Below the pieces are notes generated by a model. The model did no database searches, had not been told where the DNA came from, and worked only from the letters and a program-made list of their open reading frames with translations. DNA of 64,000 nucleotides from TPA_inf: Saccharomyces. Its lineage: Eukaryota. Location: assembly GCA_000146045.2 (NCBI GenBank), contig BK006934.2, positions 498,644 through 562,643 on the forward strand, given 5' to 3'. Positions 2,534-64,000 of the stretch are shown here, in pieces (position 1 is the stretch's first letter; every line of letters begins with the position of its first letter). Made by a program: the position numbers and the translations under genes.

Positions 2534-3744
2534 TTATTTGTTTCAAGTGGCTTTAGTTAATTATGTACACTTCGTTTCTTTTTTCTACTCTTAAAAGTGA
2601 AAAAAATGAAAAATCAGCGGCATGTATAGCATACAGATAATAGGAAAAAGGTTGTGAGTTATTCTTCGAGACTATTTCGACTCGTATTCTAAATTAGAAT
2701 TCAAGTAGGTGGATAATGTGACAAAATGAATGAAGGTTAGAGCTTTACACAGAGTATTATCCTCGGCGTTTTCTATCAAAGCTTCTGGTTATTCCATACT
2801 TTTTTCAAGGACAGCAGAAACATATGCCATTTTACACCTCCTGGGAAAATAATTTGTAATTTTCTAGTGACTCAATGCTTGTTGAAAGTGATCTTGTATA
2901 ATGAGTGTACACATGAGATGTGCAAATTTCTTCATTACTTAGCGAGAAGTGTACACTCTTGAATATAATAACACTAACAGTGGAATCATCGGTAATAATA
3001 ATACTATTGATCGTAGTGAAAGCAAAACACGACTGTACTTGAGTTATAAATTTTGTTGCTGTAGAAATTTCAGTGATCATTCATTAGCAACTTATTAAGA
3101 TGACGATTATATTTTACGGTTCTTTTCACAAACCATTATACTTGCTAAAGGTTGTAAAAGTCATACACTTTTTAACATCAAGATTTCAGTACAACAATTT
3201 CTTACATGTAAAATCGTTTGCAAATTAAGTTCGCCAAATTGTATCTTAATTAAAATCTATGTGTTCAGAAGTTGAATATTGGTAAAAAGAAACAAAATGT
3301 ATAAACGAACGAAAAAGGAAGTGATCAAAATAGAGTAAGGAACCAAGGCATTAGGTTCACCCGAACGTTATCATATATACGCTCATATTATTCCAAGAAA
3401 GACACATTTGTCTAGATAGGTTTCGGTAAAGGCGTCCGTAGTTAGAGAGTAGATGGCACTAACTTGAAAGCAGGAAAACAAACAATTGTGTTCCAGAGCA
3501 AACTCGAACTTTCTATCTGAACCATTGCATGACGTAAAATTATTATTACAACCATAATGAAACATTTCTACAGTATATCTTTAATATTATTTTTTACTTT
3601 AGTGTCCTTATCGATCAGTCGCTCTTTCGCCAACTAGCCGCCAATTGCAAAAGCCGATAAGCTTATTTCCCCTCAAGCCGTCAACAAGAACTACAGCAAT
3701 AACAAAGAGAGTGAATGCAATAAAGGTGTGCGCAACAGTGTAAA

Positions 3745-40098: not shown

Positions 40099-41280
40099 AT
40101 GCCTTATCACTATTTATTTTTGGCACTCTTCACCTACCTGGCCACGTCCAATGTTGTTTCAGGAAGTACACAAGCATGCCTGCCAGTGGGCCCGAGGAAA
40201 AATGGGATGAATGTCAACTTTTATAAATACTCATTACTGGATTCAACAACGTATTCCTACCCGCAATATATGACTTCTGGATATGCCTCGAATTGGAATT
40301 AGGTTCCGTTGGCGGACAGACGGATTTCTCAATTGACTACGATCTTTCTTGTGTTATCTCTTCAGGAACTTTTAAATGTGCTCAATCAGATGCTTATGGA
40401 AACTGGGGATGCAGAGGTCATAGTGAATGTTCAAAATAGCCAAGAAAGACCTATTGGAGTACTGATTTACTTGGTTTCTTACTATCCCAAAAAACGCTAC
40501 TCTAGAAATGACAGGTTACTTTTTACCACCACAAACAAGTTCTTACACGTTCAGGTTTGCTAAGGTCGATGACTCTGCAATTCTATCAGTCGGTGGTAAC
40601 GTTGCGTTCGAATGTTGTGCACAAGAACAACCTCCAATTACATCGACGGATTTTACAATCAATGGTATTAAGCCATGGCAAGGAAGTTTGCCTGATAACA
40701 TCGGAGGGACTGTCTACATGTATGCAGGCTACTATTATCCGCTGAAGGTTGTTTACTCCAATGCCGTTTCCTGGGGCACGCTTCCAATTAGCGTGGAATT
40801 GCCTGATGGTACTACTGTTAGTGATGACTTTGAAGGGTACGTTTACTCTTTTGACGATGATTTAAGTCAGTCAAATTGTACTATCCCTGATCCTTCAAAA
40901 CATACTACTAGCATCGTCACAACTACTACCGAACTGTGGACTGGTACTTTTACTTCTACATCTACTGAAATGACCACCGTCACCGGTACTAATGGTCAAC
41001 CAACTGACGAAACCGTTATTGTTGCCAAAGCTCCAACCACTGCCACCTCATCCAGTTTGTCATCATCTTCTTCAGAACAAATCACCAGCTCTATCACGTC
41101 TTAGCATCCAATTATTACTCCATTCTATCGCAGCAATGGAACTTCTGTAGTTTCTTCCTCAGTCATGTCTTCCTCGGTCATTTCTTCTTCTGCAACGACC
41201 TCCACTTCTACATTCTCTGAATCATCTAAATCATCCGTCATTCAAACCAGTAGTTCCACCTCTGGTTCTTCTGAGAGCGA
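40099..41280 (+). pseudogene. Flocculin pseudogene; the YHR213W-B (40099-40302) and YHR213W (40508-41104) fragments belong to one disrupted FLO-like gene
   Basis: A 67-codon piece MPYHYLFLALFTYLATSNVVSGSTQACLPVGPRKNGMNVNFYKYSL... ends at TAG. Homology then continues out of frame (40309-40563), and 40508-41104 encodes the PA14 remainder plus exactly one 45-aa repeat unit ([46 protein letters not shown]). A TAG interrupts the Ser-rich stalk at 41102, and similarity runs on to about 41280 before it is lost. Confidence 0.85.
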
Positions 41281-42645: not shown

Positions 42646-43007
42646 GGCCAATTGCTTATGTGTTGGTCTGCAAATTAGCACCTCGTTCCCTGTTGGCAAA
42701 CGCGCGCGTACAAGCCTTACAGGGCTTGAGAATGTTCTTCGTAGAAATGCATGCACAAAAATTTTGATCTAGCACACCATCGGTCTCTGTAGCTTCGGGC
42801 TCTATAGCTATGGGTTAGGAGTCCGTGAGTAGTAACAAGAAGAAGTATATAAAAAGCAGGTAAATCGTACTTCAATATGCTTCATTGTCACTGGATCGTC
42901 ATATTCACTCTTGTTCTCATAATAGCAGTCCAAGTTTTCATCTTTGCAAGCTTTACTATTTCTTTCTTTTTATTGGTAAACTCTCGCCCATTACAAAAAA
43001 AAAAGAG

Positions 43008-43619
43008 ATGTTCAATCGTTTTAACAAATTCCAAGCTGCTGTCGCTTTGGCCCTACTCTCTCGCGGCGCTCTCGGTGACTCTTACACCAATAGCACCTCC
43101 TCCGCAGACTTGAGTTCTATCACTTCCGTCTCGTCAGCTAGTGCAAGTGCCACCGCTTCCGACTCACTTTCTTCCAGTGACGGTACCGTTTATTTGCCAT
43201 CCACAACAATTAGCGGTGATCTCACAGTTACTGGTAAAGTAATTGCAACCGAGGCCGTGGAAGTCGCTGCCGGTGGTAAGTTGACTTTACTTGACGGTGA
43301 AAAATACGTCTTCTCATCTGATCTAAAAGTTCACGGTGATTTGGTTGTCGAAAAGTCTGAAGCAAGCTACGAAGGTACCGCCTTCGACGTTTCTGGTGAG
43401 ACTTTTGAAGTTTCCGGTAACTTCAGTGCTGAAGAAACTGGCGCTGTCTCCGCATCTATCTATTCATTCACACCTAGCTCGTTCAAGAGCAGCGGTGACA
43501 TTTCTTTGAGTTTGTCAAAGGCCAAGAAGGGTGAAGTCACCTTTTCTCCATACTCTAACGCTGGTACCTTTTCTTTGTCAAATGCTATTCTCAACGGTGG
43601 TTCTGTTTCCGGTTTGTAA
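43008..43619 (+). CDS. YHR214W, the N-terminal 203-aa product of a putative GPI cell-wall protein gene
   Basis: ATG at 43008, MFNRFNKFQAAVALALLSRGALG signal peptide, a Ser-rich region, then TAA at 43617. Confidence 0.75.
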   Translation: MFNRFNKFQAAVALALLSRGALGDSYTNSTSSADLSSITSVSSASASATASDSLSSSDGTVYLPSTTISGDLTVTGKVIATEAVEVAAGGKLTLLDGEKYVFSSDLKVHGDLVVEKSEASYEGTAFDVSGETFEVSGNFSAEETGAVSASIYSFTPSSFKSSGDISLSLSKAKKGEVTFSPYSNAGTFSLSNAILNGGSVSGL

Positions 43620-44903
43620 CGTAGAGACGACGATGAAGGCTCTGTAAATAACGGTGAAATCAACCTAGACAATGGAAGTACCTATGTTATCGTTGAACCA
43701 GTTTCTGGAAACGGTACAATCAACATCGTCTCTGGTAACCTATACTTGCACTACCCTGACACCTTTACTGGCCAAACTGTTGTATTCAAGGGTGAAGGTG
43801 TTCTTGCCGTTGACCCAACCGAAACCAACGCCACTCCTATTCCTGTTGTTGGCTACACCGGTAAGAACCAAATTGCCATTACCGCTGACATCACTGCTCT
43901 TTCTTACGACGGTACTACTGGTGTCTTAACTGCAACCCAAGGTAACAGACAATTCTCTTTTGAAATTGGTACTGGATTCTCTAGTTCTGGCTTCAGTGTC
44001 TCCGAAGGAATCTTCGCAGGCGCCTACTCATATTACCTAAACTATGACGGTGTCATCGCTACAAGCGCCGCATCCACATCCGCATCCACTACCTCTGGTG
44101 TTGTCTCTACTGCCACTGGTTCAGTCACTTTATCCTCTAACGCTTCTACCACCGTCTCTTCTACGATCTCTTCTAGCGCCCCAGACTCAATAATTCCTTC
44201 ATCTAGCGCCTCCATCTCTGGTGTCTCAAACTCCACTACAGCATCTGGTTCAATCGCTTCTACTGCTTCCACCGCTTCCACTACTTCTACTGCATCCGCT
44301 GCATCCGCCACCAGCTTCACCTCAGGTTCCGCTTCTGTCTACACTACTACATTAACTTACTTGAATGCCACAAGTACAGTCGTGGTTTCCTGTTCAGAAA
44401 CAACCGACGCTAGCGGTAACATTTACACCATTACCACAACTGTCCCATGCTCATCTACCACTGCCACCATCACATCTTGTGACGAAAACGGATGCCATGT
44501 TCCAGCACCAACTGCTACCGACGCAACTGCAACCGTTTCCTCCAAATCATACACCACTGTTACTGTTACTCACTGTGACAACAATGGCTGTAACACCAAG
44601 ACTGTCACTTCTGAATGTTCTAAAGAAACTGCAGCAACCACCATTTCTCCAAAATCATACACTACTGTTACCGTTACTCACTGTGACGACAACGGCTGTA
44701 ACACCAAGACTGTCACTTCCGAGGCTTCCAAACAAACATCATTGGCCACTAGCACAGTCACCAAGTCTGCTGCTCCAACTTCTCATACTGCTGCTTCCAG
44801 CACCTTCACTGGTATTGTCGTTCAATCCGAAGGTATGGCTGCTGGTTTGAGAACCAATGCTTTAAGTACTTTGGCAGGTATTTTCATCCTTGCTTTTTTT
44901 TAA
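43008..44903 (+). pseudogene. Nonsense-interrupted secreted GPI-anchored Ser/Thr-rich cell-wall protein gene; one 631-codon frame with a single internal TAA at 43617-43619
   Basis: The 385-codon open frame at 43746-44903 is in the same frame as YHR214W, and the frame stays open from 43620. It encodes a Ser/Thr-rich stalk, two Cys repeats ([25 protein letters not shown] / [25 protein letters not shown]) and a C-terminal hydrophobic GPI-type signal ([23 protein letters not shown]). The YHR214W-A-like ORF at 44365-44850 lies in another frame and looks spurious. Confidence 0.6.
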
Positions 44904-44966: not shown

Positions 44967-45298
44967 TGAGATATATGTGGGTAATTAGATAATTGTTGGG
45001 ATTCCATTGTTGATAAAGGCTATAATATTAGGTATACAGAATATACTAGAAGTTCTCCTCGAGGATATAGGAATCCTCAAAATGGAATCTATATTTCTAC
45101 ATACTAATATTACGATTATTCCTCATTCCGTTTTATATGTTTCATTATCCTATTACATTATCAATCCTTGCACTTCAGCTTCCTCTAACCTCGATGACAG
45201 CTTCTCATAACTTATGTCATCATCTTAACACCGTATATGATAATATATTGATAATATAACTATTAGTTGATAGACGATAGTGGATTTTTATTCCAACA
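44967..45298 (-). repeat. Ty1 3' LTR (delta)
   Basis: Near-identical to 50663-50994; the complement of TGAGATA...TGTTGGAATA. Confidence 0.9.
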
Positions 45299-45320
45299 TA
45301 CCACCCATAATGTAATAGAT

Positions 45321-48300
45321 CTAATGAATCCATTTGTTTGTTAATAGTTTGAATGTTTTTATCGGAAGAGGTTTGGTCATTACGTCTGCAATATTCTTTT
45401 TGGTTTCGATATAGCATACGTGCAGATGATTTCCTGATACTTCATCTCTTAGTCTCATTGCTTTAGTACCAAAAAATCTGTTTCTAAATTTCTCTTCATT
45501 ATTGGATATAATTATACTGATTGTAGATTTACTGTCGGTTAGTAATCCTTTAGTAATTGGTTTCTTGTTAAGTTCTTGCACAAGGTGACTGAGGTTATTT
45601 AATAATGGGACAGATTCACTTATCGCGTGTATTTCTGCTTCCGTAGTTGAAGTACATGTTAATGAAGCCTTGGTGGACTTTCCTCCAATTACCTTTCCAT
45701 TAAGTAAATATATGTTGCCAATTTGTGACTTGTAATATGGTTGGTTACCATATGAAGCATCACTTATTGCGACTAGTTTATTATCTGGCTCGGTAGGTTT
45801 GTTTTTGTGCCATATCAGTTGTTTATCTCTAGTGTCCCACATGAATTGTATTAACTCATATGTCATGTCTAAAACTTGCCTAGAGGGGAATAGTATATGT
45901 TGAGCAAGTGTGTTGATGTAGTATAGTAAGTCAAATCTAAATTTATATCCAACATATGAAGCTAGACCAATCAACTTTTGCATTTCATGTACCTTCTCTT
46001 TGTATTCATCTTCATCTATTTCTAGTTCATCCTGGTCTATATAAAGACCTGGTTGACCTGGAGCGCTAAGTTTTCTTCCTTTTGGATTCAAAGGTACGTT
46101 TAATTTGGGTATTTTCTCAGTTAATGAGTTTTCCATACCTAATTTCATGTATTTACCTCTTTGATATTTGATTTCTAAGCCAAGTATGTCGTACTGAATT
46201 TCGTTATCACTTTCACCCAGATTTATTATCTTTGTATCGTATTGTTTCTTGAGTGTTGTTATGATTTTCTTATTTGCATTTAAGTCTTTGCTGAACAATA
46301 TCATATCATCAACGAATAAGCAAATTGTTACTTGACTATTCTTAAATACGCATGACCATCCACGAACTTCTTCCATACCACACTGTTTTATCAGGTATGA
46401 TTTGATAGTTTCGTACCAGTTCGCTCCACTTTGTTTCAATCCATAAAGTGATTTCTTCAAACGTATCAACTTATCATTCATTCCTAAATGTGGTGGAGGT
46501 CTTATGTATAGTTCTTCTTTGATGTCTGCATACAAATATGCCGAAGATATGTCTAATTGTGTAATATAGTAGTTATTGTCTAATGCAAGTGACAGGGATG
46601 TCATTAATGCATAGTGATGTACGGTATTGGATTGCATGCCTGGGTCGTAAGTGTCAGGATGTTGAATATCACCTCTTGCAACAAATCTAGCTTTATGAGT
46701 ACCGTCACGTTTCCTGTTAAAGATAAACATTGAATTTATTACTCTTTTGGGGTCTATTTCTTTTCTGTCATAATATCTGTCAGTGTCCCAAGTTTTCATC
46801 ATCAACAGTTGATTGACTTCTTTGTGGTATGCCTGGATATATTTTTCTTTTTCTTTAATATCTTTATTATAGGTGATTGCCTCATCGTATCGTAAGGTTG
46901 TTCGTATTGGTTTGATTGATTTTACTGCTTTTACAGCTGCAATCAGGTGAATTCGTTTCTTCGATCTCGGAGGTTCTAAACTACGCATATTCTTAGTATT
47001 CCATGTGTCTCGTGATACCTTAATTTCAGTTTCATTATCTTCTAATGATCTTTTCTTACTGTTGATAGTAGTATAGGCATTAGAGTCACCAATACCACCC
47101 AAACTGGAATTAGTTTGATGAGAATTTATCGGTGGGAGTTCTTTAAAGGAGTCTGATAATTCGGTAGGAGGTTCTGGAGGCAGATCGGGGAGTGGAAGAT
47201 CAGCGATAATAGATTCCTCTGTATTCTCCTTAGGACAGGTATCTGACGTTTTGATAGGAACGACGTGGTGTAGTGAATTACTTTCTGATGAGGAAGTATC
47301 GATCGAAGGTGAACGGTGTATGATCCTTTTCTCAGTCTCCTGTTCGCTTGTCTGCGGAACAGTTTTATTATTGGTACCACCCGTACTGGATATTGGTACG
47401 TTTGTATGATTAGTCTCATTGTCACTGTACGAGTCTGAGTGTCTGAAATCTTTAGATTTACTGGCGTGCGACGACTCATGTGTGTTAGATTGGGACATGG
47501 GAGCAAGTAAAGGAACATCTAATCTATGCATACCACCCGAACCGGTACTCTCGATATCGGAAATTTGGGGGGTGCTAGATCTCTTCTTAGATGGAAGAAT
47601 ATTAGATTCAGATATGTTGGGGTCAACTTCTCTGGGTGCGCGAATATTGGTTTTGGAAACACGTTTCGAATCTTCAGTATGAGTTGACGGAGGTGTGGAA
47701 TCGGTTGGACTCACAGCTTTTGAAAGGACATTTCTCAGTTGCTCAGGATGTAGTTCAATGTCAGATTGGAAGTCATGGTCAGATTCTATGTTAAGATCAT
47801 TGGATTGTTGGATCTCATTTGACGCAATGAACGAATGATATGAAGCAGTTAAACGGTTTAAGTCTTCATCGAAAGTGAGTGCGTCGTAATTGAATTGATC
47901 TAATCTGGATTCCTTGCCCTGAAGAATAACATAGTTAGTTGTATCTACTGTCTTCTTTAAGGACGGAAGATAGATGATATATCCATAAGAGTTTCGAGAC
48001 GGATGTAGAGCGTAGCCTGGGATGCCACGAGGATGTATTTTGGAGTTAGGGTTGTGATCATTGACGATAACAGGTTGACCGAAAGGTAACAAAGTACTGA
48101 TATCAAGTCCTGCCAAGCCAGCATGTTGTCTTGCAGATTTTTTGCTTTTAGGTGAAGCTAGTGAATTTCTCACAATAGTAGAAAATTCGATTGCAGAGAA
48201 CCATAAATGGTTCGGTAAACCACTACATTGCAGTTGAGTACGGCAGTCATCTAATAAGGTACGGTTGAGCCGTTCAGCGACTCCATGTGCTCGGGAATCC

Positions 48301-50703
48301 GCTGTGGTTGTATAGCATGGAGTTATACCATTTTTTTCAAGGAATTTATGGAGAGTTCTGTTAGTATACTCAGAACCACGGTCCATTTGTATAACCAAGA
48401 CACTGGCCTGAAACTGGTTTTTAATAAAAGCTAGTATCGTAGTAAAAACATCGAGGATAGAGTCCTCGCGACGGTCGTGTAATGGATAAACCCAACGGAA
48501 TTTTGTTGTCTCATCAGTAAATGAGATGAAATAGGATGGTGCACTTTTTGGTAGGTTGTGAACTGGACCAAATATGTCAGTATGTAGGTATTGAAAGGGT
48601 TCGTATGAATTTTGGTATTTTAGTCGTGAACCTTTGATATGTCTGTGTTTGGTGCTTTTGCCGATTAAACAATCAGGACATTGATAGTCAATAGCACTAG
48701 ACCAGTCGACATCTGATTCGTTAAAATACGTGATGGTGTTATTTTTAAGTGAGTATCGAATTGTCTGTGCATTGGCATGCGCAAGCATTCGATGAATGAA
48801 AGGATAAGGATATTTGCGTGTACTTTCACTTGTATGGACATTATTGATGGTGGGTACGGAGATATTTGATGGAAGCAAGTACTTTTTAGATACCCAGTAA
48901 AAGTCTCCATATTTTACGATAGGTGCAAGTACAGTGCCGTCAGACCGTTCTAAGACGTTTTTGGTAAAGCATGCTGTGATATCTACTGCAGCCAATTCAT
49001 TCAAACTGAGTAAGTCATAGGCTATGTTAGGAGTGTGCAATACCTTTATTGATGTTTTGGTGTTGTCCTGGAAGTGAAATTGTAGGTCACCAATAGCGTT
49101 AATTGGTATATTTCTTTTTTGAGCATCAACTACGTTTATGTCAGGATTAGATGATGCTGAGTGTATGTGATGAGCAGATCTTATAAGGGTTCGTGATGCT
49201 CCTGAATCGAGAAGGAGGTGTCCAGGGAGTTCATCATCAGAATGATTAGTATGATTTACTGTAGATTCAGTAAGTTTCTGGCCTAAGATGAAGGTCGTGC
49301 TTATTGTTCAATTGAATCGGTTCAGTAGTTGATTTACTGATGGAATCGTTGTCCGTGCTGGGAGAGTTATTAGATGTGGATACATTGTGAGCCCTGGCTG
49401 TTTTCGATTTCGAATTATTTGTTTTTTGAGGATTCCGAGCTATAACTTTGGGTTTGGTTGTATTCGTATAGCTGCGAGAATCATTCTTCTCATCACTCGG
49501 ATTTCTCCTGTAATTAGGTTTGCTGTTTCTCGATCCCTGTTGTTCTTCATAAATAGCATGGATATCTAAGAACAGTTCAGCGACTGTCATATTTAGATGT
49601 CGATGACGTGTGTAGCGTAAAAATTTATATTCGCCAGATAGACCTCTCATAATTAATTGGCATGCGACCTTGTTATTGATATGAATGCCATTATTGTTCA
49701 GTCTGTCGATAATGTTTGTGACTTTTGTTTCAAATGCATCTGCAGGTGTACTGCCATTATATTGCAAATTTGCCAGGGTCACAATGTCGTTTGCCTCTTG
49801 GGTATCAGATTGCATTTTTTCAATACTTTTGGAAAGAATTTTCATGATATCCGTATAATCAACGGATAGGATGTCTTTGACCCAGGTAGGTAGGAATTGA
49901 GAGGGAGCAAATATTTGAAAAGTGTTATACAAGAAGGTGAGTTCATCATCAGTGATCTGACGTACGGGTTTTCCGTTTACTGTCGGAATAATACCACCGA
50001 GATTCGAGTTTTGTAAAAATTTGATGTATGTTTTAACCCAATTTGGAAAGTCATTAGGTGAGGTTAACATTGGTGGTACGGGTTTTCCGTTTACTGTCGG
50101 AATAATACCACCGAGATTCGAGTTTTGTAAAAATTTGATGTATGTTTTAACCCAATTTGGAAAGTCATTAGGTGAGGTTAACATTGGTGGTGGTCTGACA
50201 TATTTTTTAGTGGATGTCATATCAGAGTCCGCTGAGGATGAATCAGTAAATGTATTACCTGACTCAGGTGATGGAGTGCTCAGAGGCGTTCCAACTGATG
50301 ATGGATACTGCGGAAACTGTGATTGTGGCCCAGGTGGAAAGTACATAGGCGACATTTGATAAGGTGTATACGGAATCATAGATGGGTGTCCGTAAAATGA
50401 CCAACCAGATGGATTGGCTTGGTTTTGGGTCATCATGCACTGCTGTGGGTACGGCCCATTCTGTGGAGGTGGTACTGAAGCAGGTTGAGGAGAGGCATGA
50501 TGGAGGTTCTCTGGAACAGCTGATGAAGCAGGTGTTGTTGTCTGTTGAGAGTTAGCCTTAGTGGAAGCCTTATCATATTCTTGAATTTTGGAAGCTGAAA
50601 CGTCTAACGGATCTTGATTTGTGTGGACTTCCTTAGAAGTAACCGAAGCACAGGCGCTACCATGAGATATATGTGGGTAATTAGATAATTGTTGGGATTC
50701 CAT
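45321..50703 (-). CDS. Ty1 TYA-TYB Gag-Pol (protease, integrase, reverse transcriptase/RNase H) via a +1 ribosomal frameshift
   Basis: The CTTAGGC frameshift heptamer is the complement of 49281-49287. The TYB frame is open to 45321 and ends ...[18 protein letters not shown]. Integrase DD35E and RT YVDD motifs are present ([10 protein letters not shown]). Confidence 0.88.
49267..50703 (-). CDS. Ty1 TYA (Gag), 478 aa
   Basis: [26 protein letters not shown]... The usual product is 440 aa; this copy carries a 38-aa internal tandem duplication. Confidence 0.9.
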
Positions 50704-50994
50704 TGTTGATAAAGGCTATAATATTAGATATACAGAATATACTAGAAGTTCTCCTCGAGGATATAGGAATCCTCAAAATGGAATCTATATTTCTACATAC
50801 TAATATTACGATTATTCCTCATTCCGTTTTATATGTTTCATTATCCTATTACATTATCAATCCTTGCACTTCAGCTTCCTCTAACCTCGATGACAGCTTC
50901 TCATAACTTATGTCATCATCTTAACACCGTATATGATAATATATTGATAATATAACTATTAGTTGATAGACGATAGTGGATTTTTATTCCAACA
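50663..50994 (-). repeat. Ty1 5' LTR (delta); contains the TYA start codon, the complement of 50701-50703
   Basis: The same sequence as the 3' LTR, followed internally by the primer-binding site. Confidence 0.9.
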
Positions 50995-51116
50995 AAACGT
51001 CAGTGTAAACATTCAAGTGATTTTAACTTTACGCGGTTGAAGAATGCTGTGTTCGAACTATAAAGCGTCAGAAAAGATGGTTTAGCGAAGGCACCATTAT
51101 GAAGATAGACACATTC

Positions 51117-51156: not shown

Positions 51157-53037
51157 CATTTACTTTTATTTCTCGCGGTCGGTAAATTTTTCGTGGGTTT
51201 CTTTGAATCTATTAGCCGACATAAGAATAATGCATAAATAATATTTTTAATGTCTTCCTATGCCCAAAAGAAGAAGTCTTGAAGTTGCCGCACATGGAAA
51301 TCACATGACCATGGCTTGGCCCTTCGTTTTAAATGCAACATGCAATATGGAATGTGTCATGAATACTATCAGCAGGAACAGAAAGCGTCGTTTTGTTTCT
51401 GCAAATGCTGTAGTTTTGGGCCGAAAATAGATGTAGTAGAATATATAGTGAAACGTGATGTACAAAAGAAAAAGGTAGTTTAAAAAAAATTAGATAACTT
51501 GGATTTTTACCCTGAATATTGCATGTGATTCGTAAAGAACTGAGTTACCTCAAACGGACCTCCCTTTTCATTTCGTATTCCGCGAATCATGAAGTCATGC
51601 AATTACCTCTGAAGAGCTGACTGTCCCAAAAGAAGCTATCGAATCTGTCCTTGATTTATTTAAGCCTTGCGTTTCGAGAAAGTGAAAACCAATTGAATAC
51701 AAAATAAAAAAAAAAGAAGAAAGAAATAGCAGGTCTAAGATATATAAGAAAGTTAATATCATTTTTGAACATTTTATTTTAGACGCCTTCAGCCGCGCGA
51801 CGCCCGGAGTAATCATATGCCCATGACTTTACCAAAAGGCAACAGGGAGGAACATGCATTAATGTGAAGCATCACTGCTGCAATTCTCGGTGTTGCTAAT
51901 AATTCATGGATCGAGAAAGAGACATAACATTTAGGCCAATTTTTTGAATAAATATGAACTCAGCTAAGACTCGACAATACAATTTTCTTATACTAAACGT
52001 AGATTTATAAAATAAACACAACTGTAAGGGCAATGCAACCGTAGATGCATATATCATTTATAGAAATTATATCCAACAGAAAGCTCAGACTTATATCCGG
52101 TTTAAGAGAGAAATTCTTGCTCATATTACCCCAAGACCAGGTGGCGTGTTGAAGTTTATAACATATAAGAACTACTACCTCATGAATTCTAGTGGATGAA
52201 AGAAGCAGCACGAACACCATTTCTACAGACAACGACACATGGAAAGGTTCACCATTCCCAAAGAAAACAACGATGGCCACAAGGGTGTGGTCCTCCATTC
52301 TCCTACTGTTGGAAGGAGATATTATCCGACCGACTGTTTTGTGATATGGCAAACTATTTTTTTAAATGAGCAAAATTACTTCTTTTGGCTGGAAATGTCA
52401 TTAGAAAGTGCCCAAGTGACATTTAGCTAAACTCGGGTATTGTCTACAAGACCGGTGCTGTGACCGTTTCCAATACGGAAAGAAACGGTACTGGGAGCAG
52501 GAGTTGCTTTTACAGATATGAACAATGCCAATAGAGCCGCACATGTAATTACTGGTTCACACTCGTGGGGCCCACACGATTCCTGTGCAAAGTTTGACAA
52601 GAGGATGGAGTTTCACGTAAATGCTGCCAAAGGTGATGCGGTTTTGTTTTTGGGCAGCCTCTACCATGTTGCAAGTGCGAACCATACTGTGGCCACATAG
52701 ATTACAAAAAAAGTCCAGGATATCTTGCAAACCTAGCTTGTTTTGTAAACGACATTGAAAAAAGCGTATTAAGGTGAGAAAATCAAGATTATCTAAGCCG
52801 ATGAAAAATGAAAGGTATGATTTCAGCCACAAATATATAGTAGTTATTTTATACATCAAGATGAGAAAATAAAGGGATTTTTTCGTTCTTTTATCATTTT
52901 CTCTTTCTCACTTCCGACTACTTCTTATATCTACTTTCATCGTTTCATTCATCGTGGGTGTCTAATAAAGTTTTAATGACAGAGATAACCTTGATAAGCT
53001 TTTTCTTATACGCTGTGTCACGTATTTATTAAATTAC

Positions 53038-63404: not shown

Positions 63405-63813
63405 AGGAAATTGTTGTTACGAAAGTCAGTGATTATGTATTGTGTAGTATAGTATATTGTAAGAAATTTTTTTTTCTAGGGAATATGCGTTTTGATGTAG
63501 TAGTATTTCACTGTTTTGATTTAGTGTTTGTTGCACGGCAGTAGCGAGAGACAAGTGGGAAAGAGTAGGATAAAAAGACAATCTATAAAAAGTAAACATA
63601 AAATAAAGGTAGTAAGTAGCTTTTGGTTGAACATCCGGGTAAGAGACAACAGGGCTTGGAGGAGACGTACATGAGGGCTATTTAGGGCTATTTAGGGCTA
63701 TGTAGAAGTGCTGTAGGGCTAAAGAACAGGGTTTCATTTTCATTTTTTTTTTTTAATTTCGGTCAGAAAGCCGGGTAAGGAGTGACAGCGAGAGTAAAGA
63801 TAGATGTGAAAAG

Positions 63814-64000
63814 TGTGGGTGTGGTGTGTGGGTGTGGGTGTGTGTGTGGGTGTGGTGTGTGGGTGTGGGTGTGGGTGTGGGTGTGGTGTGGGTGTGGTGT
63901 GTGGGTGTGGTGTGTGGGTGTGGTGTGGGTGTGGTGTGGTGTGTGGGTGTGTGGGTGTGGTGTGGTGTGTGGGTGTGGTGTGGGTGTGGTGTGTGTGTGG
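63814..64000. repeat. Terminal TG1-3 telomeric repeats at the chromosome end
   Basis: (TG)1-3 GTGTGGGTGTGG-type degenerate repeat running to the last base of the window. Confidence 0.92.

Follow-up and report, generated by a model that had tools for sequence, protein, structure and literature searches.

Translation of positions 43008-44903 (forward strand) of the window, i.e. the whole analysed stretch of 64,000 nucleotides, revealed a reading frame of 632 codons that ends with the TAA at 44901-44903 and is interrupted only once, by a stop at codon 204. Retranslation detected no further stops or frameshifts between these positions, in agreement with the first-pass annotation, which had described a frame open throughout save for one TAA. 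Besides the downstream frame, the list of ORFs contains an ORF at 42885/43008-43619 (203 aa when counted from the ATG) and an out-of-frame 161-aa ORF at 44365-44850. The locus comprises the following features:

43008-44903, forward strand: whole gene, probably disabled, of 631 codons plus the terminal TAA; member of the HPF1/CSS1/AWA1 (Hyr/Iff-like) family
43008-43619, forward strand: annotated as YHR214W; holds the first 203 codons and the premature TAA
43008-43076, forward strand: signal peptide (aa 1-23, MFNRFNKFQAAVALALLSRGALG) with a hydrophobic core and A-L-G ahead of the predicted cleavage point
43170-44057, forward strand: A-domain (aa 55-350) with a predicted beta-helix plus alpha-crystallin-like fold; the TAA lies about halfway through
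43617-43619, forward strand: premature stop, CAA (Gln) to TAA by a C-to-T change at 43617
43620-44900, forward strand: untranslated remnant, codons 205-631, wholly open
43620-43625, forward strand: Arg205-Arg206, sole dibasic site, within the exposed loop where the TAA is also located
44058-44417, forward strand: Ser/Thr-rich stalk (aa 351-470), 55% Ser+Thr, putatively O-glycosylated
44365-44850, forward strand: YHR214W-A, 161 codons overlapping this gene in its +2 frame, an artefact of codon composition
44544-44615 and 44652-44723, forward strand: two Cys-containing repeats (aa 513-536 and 549-572) with (N/D) at one position
44826-44900, forward strand: GPI-attachment-type C-terminus (aa 607-631) with omega candidates G609/A611, a polar spacer and the hydrophobic tail LAGIFILAFF

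All 427 codons 3' of the TAA are open, which would happen by chance with a probability of 1.3e-8 given the base composition, and 0 of 2000 shuffles left the frame open. The first in-frame ATG 3' of the TAA is codon 610, so that the 3' part has no capacity for separate translation. An open stretch of 385 codons from 43746 had been noted earlier; its open frame stands, but its start does not, as the TTG at this position is a start only in the bacterial table.

A search with the profile PF11765 (Hyphal_reg_CWP; cut-off 28 bits) showed that the upstream ORF matches profile positions 11-145 with 28.6 bits and the downstream frame positions 162-307 with 49.3 bits. The intact allele P0118 displayed one continuous match at aa 66-348, covering profile positions 11-307 with 80.4 bits. 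The TAA thus splits one PF11765 domain, showing that both halves are parts of a single gene. This bears out the proposal that a nonsense mutation has split a single gene of 631 codons, with a Gln carried by intact alleles and orthologues at the site of interruption.

The remaining parts of the protein are distributed over both halves as had been described before. The 5' part starts with a signal-peptide-like N-terminus, and the N-terminus of YAR066W, with its 23-aa signal, has been trapped and serves as a secretion leader (PMC4508530; PMC13185157). The Ser/Thr stalk, both Cys repeats and the GPI-type tail were all located in the 3' part. The length of the stalk varies among alleles by in-frame indels of 15 nt at 44143 and 9 nt at 44289, the Cys repeats are kept in the S. 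paradoxus and S. uvarum orthologues, and the last 10 residues (Kyte-Doolittle hydropathy 2.8) form a tail that is conserved across the family. The TAA parts the signal peptide from the GPI-type C-terminus; the two are found in one polypeptide only in intact alleles and not in the allele of the window. Neither half is therefore a complete GPI cell-wall protein, as the first-pass annotation had stated.

The AF2 model of the intact N-terminal region showed pLDDT values of 75-96 over aa 55-350 and above 90 for residues 60-190. Foldseek aligned this model with the A-domains of Awp3b and Awp1 (7O9P, 7O9O, 7O9Q) at E-values from 6e-10 to 7e-7 and a probability of 1.00, with target-normalised TM scores of 0.58-0.73 over about 320 aligned columns; searching the PDB by sequence alone with the N-terminal domain revealed no meaningful match. 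On the basis of the model, the A-domain is predicted to adopt a beta-helix plus alpha-crystallin-like fold. C. glabrata Awp1 and Awp3b and C. albicans Hyr1/Iff share this fold and the Pfam/InterPro family (PMC8746771). However, sequence identity to Awp1/Awp3b is only 17-24%, and an adhesion role of the protein described here is putative.

The closest known relatives are HPF1 (YOL155C), CSS1/HPF1' (YIL169C) and AWA1 of sake yeast, whose A-domains are 57-80% identical to that of this gene. They display the same order of PF11765 domain, Ser/Thr stalk, TVTHCDxNGC repeats and GPI-type tail ('...QSEGIAAGL...FVLAFF'), and they share the subtelomeric position and the induction by zinc deficiency. In contrast to them, this gene has its own locus at chrI-R (with a duplicate at chrVIII-R) and distinct orthologues in both S. 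paradoxus and S. uvarum; it is also shorter, its A-domain follows directly after the signal peptide, and it is nonsense-disabled in this sequence. In a structural survey, Hpf1 and Css1 were the only two proteins counted for S288c (PMC8746771).

A search for homologous sequences revealed 86 homologues, including S. paradoxus SPAR_A00820 (638 aa) and S. uvarum SUVZ_01G0820 (633 aa), which both have Gln at the position of codon 204. Almost all family members have this Gln; an S. kudriavzevii-type sequence has Glu instead. Many S. cerevisiae strains carry 631-aa intact alleles, which differ from the product of the window by *204Q and 1-3 residues; for P0118 (Kyokai 7), P0120 and P0125 the difference is *204Q and one residue. 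At the DNA level codon 204 is CAA in the S. cerevisiae loci L011, L012 and L015 and in S. paradoxus (L013), and likewise CAA/Gln in S. uvarum, so that the sense codon that the first-pass annotation had suggested looking for in other strain assemblies was indeed found. Its second suggestion, the chromosome I paralogue YAR066W, led to the opposite result: the S288C product consists of the identical 203 aa and ends at the same stop. Another 20 loci have TAA at codon 204, and L008 has TGA. The presence of CAA/Gln in S. paradoxus, S. uvarum and many conspecific strains identifies the TAA as a derived C-to-T nonsense mutation. Moreover, L015 carries the CAA allele within an otherwise stop-type haplotype, which indicates that the mutation is recent.

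The 203-aa product matches NP_009430.1 (YAR066W) exactly; UniRef names it 'Putative GPI-anchored protein YAR066W'. It is indexed in 719 blocks and present on 407 contigs of chrI and chrVIII size. Altogether 22 independent stop-bearing copies were detected on chrI-sized and chrVIII-sized contigs. The loci at chrI-R and chrVIII-R belong to a 19.6-kb duplication with a Ks of 0.0066 (PMC2728529). Downstream of the chrVIII copy, a Ty1 LTR is located at 44968. The stop allele occupies both subtelomeric copies and is widespread in S. cerevisiae beside intact alleles. That the TAA is unreal and merely reflects a sequencing or assembly error in the window has a practically negligible probability and was rejected, given that 20 independent assemblies produced by several projects share the TAA and that 407 contigs carry the 203-aa product.

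We conclude with a probability of roughly 0.9 that the locus is a young, strain-polymorphic pseudogene of a 631-aa GPI-type mannoprotein of the HPF1/CSS1/AWA1 family, arisen by a C-to-T nonsense mutation at Gln204. The ancestral locus encoded, and many strains still encode, a mannoprotein of 631 aa from the HPF1/CSS1/AWA1 (PF11765) family, putatively secreted and GPI-anchored in the cell wall. In the lineage of the window, a C-to-T transition changed Gln204 (CAA) to TAA midway through the A-domain. Translation would terminate after 203 residues and the other 427 codons would have become a long false 3' UTR, a remnant whose frame would have stayed open only owing to the young age of the mutation. 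The product lacks the rest of the A-domain, the stalk and the wall anchor, and the wall-anchored function would consequently be lost. YHR214W represents the 5' stump and YHR214W-A an accidental ORF in another frame.

The unity of the gene, its ancestral state, the polymorphism and the past constraint on both halves are shown by the sequence comparisons; the loss of function, the relaxed constraint and nonsense-mediated decay (NMD) of the transcript are inferred. A close comparison is offered by the S288C dORFs such as YIL168W/YIL167W, which are likewise subtelomeric, adjacent in-frame pieces separated by a single natural stop, with intact versions elsewhere. In this pair, split only by a stop, the stop of YIL168W is a premature terminator that triggers NMD (PMC1657058). 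By analogy, a stop at codon 204 of 632 followed by a 1.3-kb tail would be expected to be an NMD trigger as well. Unlike in the dORFs, only the 5' piece is annotated here, and the 3' piece has no ATG and is masked by a spurious ORF in another frame. The gene is unnamed in the published NMD-target supplements and dORF material searched and in the hemiascomycete pseudogene catalogue, and also in the available part of the re-annotation text PMC2447204.

Comparison of intact S. cerevisiae alleles with S. paradoxus showed a dN/dS of 0.04 for the upstream half and of 0.07, 0.28 and 0.13 for three downstream regions; both halves were under long-term purifying selection in the past. Private downstream changes on stop alleles showed seven non-synonymous to one synonymous change (N7:S1) versus N2:S15 for intact-stop haplotypes (Fisher p = 5e-4), a count of 8 SNPs with 5 from L004, some of which may be assembly errors or small conversion tracts. 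Judged from these alignments, constraint appears to be relaxed on stop-bearing alleles. L002 and L026, with runs of N within or beside the gene, were left out of the variant counts. A cluster of changes at 43632-43704 in L016/L017 was not accepted as private, as it resembles a conversion tract and its variants are shared with intact alleles (D209T in P0121 and P0126). Single-nucleotide indels were found in L015 (+C at 44388), in L018 (two insertions) and at the 3' end in five assemblies (T8 to T9); leaving aside the context of one L018 insertion, they lie in short base runs of presumed long-read assemblies and were for this reason not counted as secondary disabling lesions or independent pseudogenisation. 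Among the 203 upstream codons, only old shared synonymous variants were detected in the unbiased loci L016-L028; loci L001-L010 had been selected for an exactly identical 203-aa product and are a biased sample for upstream constraint.

None of the 22 stop-bearing copies contains a second stop in the downstream frame. An open frame in all stop copies fits recency, and selection for read-through would fit it equally. Programmed or conditional read-through, e.g. in [PSI+] cells, would make the TAA a switch and the full-length GPI protein a low-level or inducible product. Besides the intact downstream frame in 22/22 copies, this is favoured by the +4 base C, the most permissive one (PMC8087045), and by the insertion of Gln, Tyr or Lys at UAA in yeast, where the Gln share would restore the ancestral residue (PMC4150775); one strain has TGA-C, the leakiest yeast context, at codon 204. 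However, among the stop codons UAA terminates most strongly, and read-through at UAA-C is no higher than the genome median (PMC8087045), and the surrounding UUG-UAA-CGU-AGA, with U, U and G at -3, -2 and -1, does not fit the permissive A-A / CAR-NBA pattern. The excess of non-synonymous private variants on stop alleles and the CAA in outgroups and many conspecific alleles also argue against it. The gene is absent from the published ribosome-profiling read-through supplements searched; reads would map to both the chrI and chrVIII loci, which are near-identical. Known read-through genes (BSC genes, PDE2 and others; Namy et al. 2003, as cited in PMC1657058) resemble the locus in having an ORF, a single stop and a long in-frame extension, but their contexts are leaky, whereas the UAA here has a non-permissive 5' context, the orthologues have no stop and the extension is the conserved ancestral body of the protein. 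Taken together, read-through is extremely unlikely, and the first-pass annotation, which had offered programmed or strain-specific read-through as its second option, is not supported in this point: the stop is unconserved in other species and UAA, the least leaky stop, stands here without a read-through motif.

The position of the stop draws attention to the adjacent Arg205-Arg206. This pair is the sole [KR]R of the protein, is invariant in 25 family members, and has an RR or KK counterpart in relatives that share 29-37% identity. Residues 200-204 form the sole internal low-pLDDT segment of the AF2 model. Arg205-Arg206 may be a Kex2 site; the gene was not found among published predicted Kex2 substrates, and Kex2 cleavage of the family is undocumented in the literature searched. 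The 203-aa product ends one residue before the dibasic loop and could still be a stable secreted fragment.

If the 203-aa product were a functional soluble beta-helix fragment, secreted and similar to an Arg-Arg processing product, the allele might have been kept or favoured for it. The TAA in the only low-confidence loop, directly before the invariant sole dibasic site, the confidently modelled residues 60-190, the N-terminus that acts as an efficient secretion leader and the very common occurrence of the allele at both subtelomeres would agree with such a function. This explanation is nevertheless very unlikely: the literature searched documents no Kex2 cleavage of the family, the last rungs of the beta-helix and the whole alpha-crystallin-like domain are lost, and variants of the 203-aa product carry the non-synonymous singletons T124I, V177I, K116N, A172T and S56P. 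Drift, gene conversion between the two subtelomeres and population structure among domesticated strains explain the high frequency equally well, and NMD would be expected as in YIL168W/YIL167W. Very unlikely as well is a combined scenario of an 'anchor-loss' allele, in which the allele, yielding a soluble N-terminal beta-helix fragment close to a Kex2-type product and traces of the anchored protein through basal Gln read-through, would have reached both subtelomeres and hundreds of assemblies by selection on the cell surface or under zinc limitation; the selected properties would then be hydrophobicity, foam or haze, or the response to zinc limitation.

For the young pseudogene as the preferred reading, the main value lies in annotation, and the locus is otherwise an ordinary case of how subtelomeric cell-wall genes turn over. 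Both YHR214W and YAR066W, its twin on chrI, are reference 'putative GPI proteins' without a GPI signal and represent the 5' stumps of a third gene of HPF1/CSS1 type. The intact 631-aa allele present elsewhere (Kyokai 7) is relevant to S288C-based work on the adhesin-like family, on haze-protective mannoproteins of wine and on anchors for surface display.

The out-of-frame ORF at 44365-44850 had been regarded as probably meaningless, and our results agree. Its 161-aa product, named 'YHR214W-A' in the database, is a low-complexity Pro/Leu/Thr sequence with no Pfam match, the ORF is interrupted in S. uvarum, and an A/G variant at 44546 alters YHR214W-A but leaves the product of the long frame unchanged. 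A search for ZRE-like patterns (Zap1 sites) detected no site near the gene; a scan for promoters and terminators of bacterial type was disregarded as inapplicable to a yeast gene. RNA-seq shows co-regulation of YHR214W and YHR214W-A with HPF1 (PMC8527512), and zinc deficiency induces 'YHR214W-A', HPF1 and CSS1 (PMC2535606). Co-regulation and zinc induction fit one mRNA across the whole old gene; YHR214W-A and YAR068W represent frame artefacts, and their reported regulation most likely reflects the mRNA of the old gene.

At 43008-44903 lies a conserved gene for a predicted GPI-anchored cell-wall protein, in the form of a nonsense allele that is both young and widespread; it is not a recoding site. 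This supports overall the main interpretation of the first-pass annotation, a cell-wall protein gene split by a nonsense codon. Translation of 43008-44903 on the forward strand gave 632 codons, with a terminal TAA at 44901-44903 and, as had been proposed, only one internal stop, the TAA at 43617-43619 (codon 204). The ORF listing divides this stretch into 203 codons from the ATG at 43008, a long stretch left open past the stop and, in a different frame, an ORF of 161 codons at 44365-44850. Exact look-ups identified the 203-aa product as S288C YAR066W ('Putative GPI-anchored protein') and the 161-aa product as YHR214W-A. The openness of the 427 codons downstream of the stop is unexpected by chance (probability 1.3e-8 from base composition; 0 of 2000 shuffles remained open). 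Because no in-frame ATG is found between codons 204 and 610, the 3' part is not expressible alone.

Domain searches and modelling show that the upstream and downstream halves are one gene. The stop splits the Pfam domain PF11765 (Hyphal_reg_CWP, 328 positions) into profile positions 11-145 in the upstream ORF and 162-307 in the downstream frame; an intact allele gives a single continuous match (residues 66-348, 80.4 bits), in agreement with the earlier claim that the TAA divides one putative GPI cell-wall protein gene. AlphaFold modelling of the first 393 residues of the intact protein showed a confident all-beta domain (about residues 55-350), whose sole internal low-confidence segment, residues 200-204, is the loop holding the stop. 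The model aligned with the A-domain crystal structures of Candida glabrata Awp3b/Awp1 over ~320 columns (E 6e-10 to 7e-7, target-normalised TM 0.58-0.73). In these structures an alpha-crystallin-like domain comes after a beta-helix (PMC8746771), and with such a two-part fold the stop deletes the end of the beta-helix and the entire second sub-domain. The signal peptide assigned to the 5' part is borne out by the experimental use of the N-terminal 23 residues as a secretion signal (PMC4508530, PMC13185157). The features assigned to the 3' part are likewise present by sequence: a stalk with 55% Ser/Thr, two Cys repeats and a GPI-type C-terminus in which small-residue omega candidates precede a polar spacer and a hydrophobic tail. 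All predicted parts that define a wall protein thus lie 3' of the stop.

A search with the conceptual 631-aa product revealed 86 homologues, including full-length proteins of many S. cerevisiae strains, S. paradoxus SPAR_A00820 (638 aa) and S. uvarum SUVZ_01G0820 (633 aa). In all of these full-length proteins the stop position is Gln, within the motif GGSVSGL-Q-RRDDDEG; an S. kudriavzevii-type sequence has Glu. Three intact S. cerevisiae proteins (P0118, which includes Kyokai 7 K7_03371p, P0120 and P0125) are exactly 631 aa long and differ from the window product solely by *204Q and one more residue. Among homologous loci in other assemblies, codon 204 is CAA in L011, L012, L015 and S. paradoxus L013, TAA in 20 others and TGA in one (L008). 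Other S. cerevisiae assemblies therefore carry the sense codon that the first-pass annotation had proposed to look for, and since the CAA allele L015 otherwise resembles the stop-bearing haplotypes, the lesion is a single, recent C-to-T transition, as the suggestion of a recent nonsense mutation implied. Annotation pipelines bridge the stop by an invented intron in P0008, P0009 ('Css1p') and P0016, and P0069 and P0072 have an annotated start in another frame, so these strains also bear the stop. The TGA of L008 (3610-3612, window 43617-43619; strain GCA_000977355.3) is a single case, with A-to-G at 43618 in a haplotype of the stop type; neutral drift or an error could account for it.

Low dN/dS values in all regions show that the entire 631-codon frame had been a constrained gene.

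Regional dN/dS, intact S. cerevisiae versus S. paradoxus
Upstream 203 codons: 0.04
Downstream part of the A-domain: 0.07
Ser/Thr stalk: 0.28
Cys repeats and GPI region: 0.13

The intact L011 haplotype differs from the window downstream of the stop by 2 non-synonymous and 15 synonymous changes. Variants exclusive to stop-bearing alleles comprised 7 non-synonymous and 1 synonymous (Fisher p = 5e-4 versus 2:15), a small count of 8 sites, five from a single assembly, which was unchanged after 12 further stop-bearing loci. Relaxed constraint after the stop would predict such a pattern, small as the sample is. None of the stop-bearing alleles compared has a second stop. A few 1-bp indels were not trusted, as they lie in short base runs (the context of one L018 insertion apart) of assemblies presumed to be long-read. 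The T8 run across the natural stop (44894-44901) appears as T9 in four assemblies (L005, L006, L024, L027), which changes the end from ...AFF* to ...AFFLK*, an ending also found in proteins P0017, P0069 and P0079; this is either a genuine length polymorphism or a long-read homopolymer error. L010 has an extra A right after the run and retains ...AFF*.

Programmed or strain-specific read-through, the alternative raised earlier, finds little favour. UAA is the least leaky stop in yeast, and +4 C is the most permissive, yet UAA-C is merely at the genome median (PMC8087045). The context here is UUG-UAA-CGU-AGA, whose U, U, G at -3/-2/-1 differ from the A-rich pattern that favours leakage (PMC8087045). 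By this non-permissive context and by the absence of the stop from orthologues the gene does not qualify as one with programmed read-through, and nothing suggests a programmed event. TGA-C, the context in L008, is the leakiest in yeast (PMC8087045). Ribosomes that pass a UAA at the basal rate incorporate Gln, Tyr or Lys there (PMC4150775), so wild-type protein could be made in trace amounts. YIL168W/YIL167W, a disabled ORF (dORF) pair parted by a stop alone, is a direct target of nonsense-mediated decay owing to that stop (PMC1657058); by analogy the YHR214W mRNA, which continues for 1.3 kb past its nonsense codon, would be expected to be a target too.

Immediately 3' of the nonsense codon lies Arg205-Arg206 (43620-43625; loop 43605-43640), the sole dibasic site of the 631-aa protein, again within the only low-confidence internal loop of the model. 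The site does not vary among 25 family members, relatives at 29-37% identity retain either RR or KK, and it resembles a Kex2 site (aliphatic P4, acidic P1'-P4'); no evidence of cleavage there was found in the literature searched. Because the stop adjoins this invariant loop, there is a weak possibility that the truncated product resembles a natural processing fragment.

The 203-aa product was found in 719 indexed blocks of the collection on 407 contigs, some chromosome VIII-sized (about 540 kb) and some chromosome I-sized (200-270 kb). A sense codon in the chromosome I paralogue, the other comparison proposed, was not found: S288C YAR066W is an identical 203-aa protein, so this copy bears the same stop. 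Both loci are part of a 19.6-kb chromosome I/VIII duplication (Ks 0.0066 for the gene pair; PMC2728529). Chromosome I is probably the ancestral site, since the S. paradoxus and S. uvarum orthologues are located there. Several strains (e.g. CDG_1a) have two intact, identical copies, in keeping with the two subtelomeres having been duplicated or homogenised recently. Two stop-bearing assemblies, L016 and L017, share seven clustered substitutions just 3' of the stop (3625-3700, window 43632-43704), including D209T, also present in intact alleles P0121 and P0126; the cluster has the appearance of a small patch of gene conversion, either from one allele to another or from copy to copy.

The dismissal of the internal ORF at 44365-44850 (YHR214W-A) as probably meaningless holds. 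It lies in frame +2 of the long gene, its low-complexity Pro/Leu/Thr translation has no Pfam family match, and it is open in S. paradoxus and interrupted by stops in S. uvarum. At 44546 the window and the YAR068W-type haplotype differ by A/G, a change that alters the short ORF and is synonymous in the long frame. The reported zinc-deficiency induction of YHR214W-A parallels that of the paralogues HPF1 and CSS1 (PMC2535606), and in RNA-seq the ORF varies together with YHR214W and HPF1 (PMC8527512). Both would follow if a single mRNA across the old gene is what array probes and reads detect.

The gene is a third S. cerevisiae member, in two copies, of the HPF1/CSS1/AWA1 group of the Hyr/Iff/Awp family. 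A recent structural survey counted Hpf1 and Css1 only in S288c (PMC8746771), which fits a third member disabled and unrecognised in this strain. No paper calling YHR214W/YAR066W a truncated allele was found in a search that lay outside the original dORF catalogue; given that limit, and since the public annotation of other strains already includes models of the intact gene, novelty is low. As a phenomenon the gene can be classed with the disabled ORFs and strain-polymorphic pseudogenes characteristic of yeast subtelomeres. TG1-3 telomere repeats at 63810-64000 mark the chromosome end, about 19 kb from the gene, and the surrounding region is rich in damaged genes.

Features neighbouring the gene
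40508-41104, + strand: flocculin fragment, 198-aa ORF with PA14/GLEYA/Flocculin matches
44968-50994, - strand: full-length Ty1, LTRs 44967-45299 and 50663-50995 identical over 300 nt
52518-52700, + strand: PhyH fragment, 60-aa ORF covering PhyH domain positions 137-207 only; a relic

The flocculin fragment is N-terminally truncated, as it starts at PA14 profile position 50; its counterparts in L004, L006, L016 and L017 have called products of 337 to over 390 aa, making it another gene disabled here and more complete elsewhere. At the place corresponding to the PhyH fragment, two genes are intact in S. paradoxus (L013, 5870-7917), an aminotransferase of 437 aa and a PhyH protein of 346 aa, which agrees with the BIO gene relics on chromosomes I and VIII discussed in PMC3364882. 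Ty1 is inserted 64 bp 3' of the terminal TAA, where the chromosome VIII copy has probably lost its own 3' end signals to the element. Among the loci compared across it, this junction is specific to the window: the site is empty in 22/22 other S. cerevisiae loci (21 plus L026, where the flanks join directly). Within Ty1, upstream of the long TYB frame, 49962-50189 holds a 114-nt unit duplicated in tandem, its two copies 100% identical.
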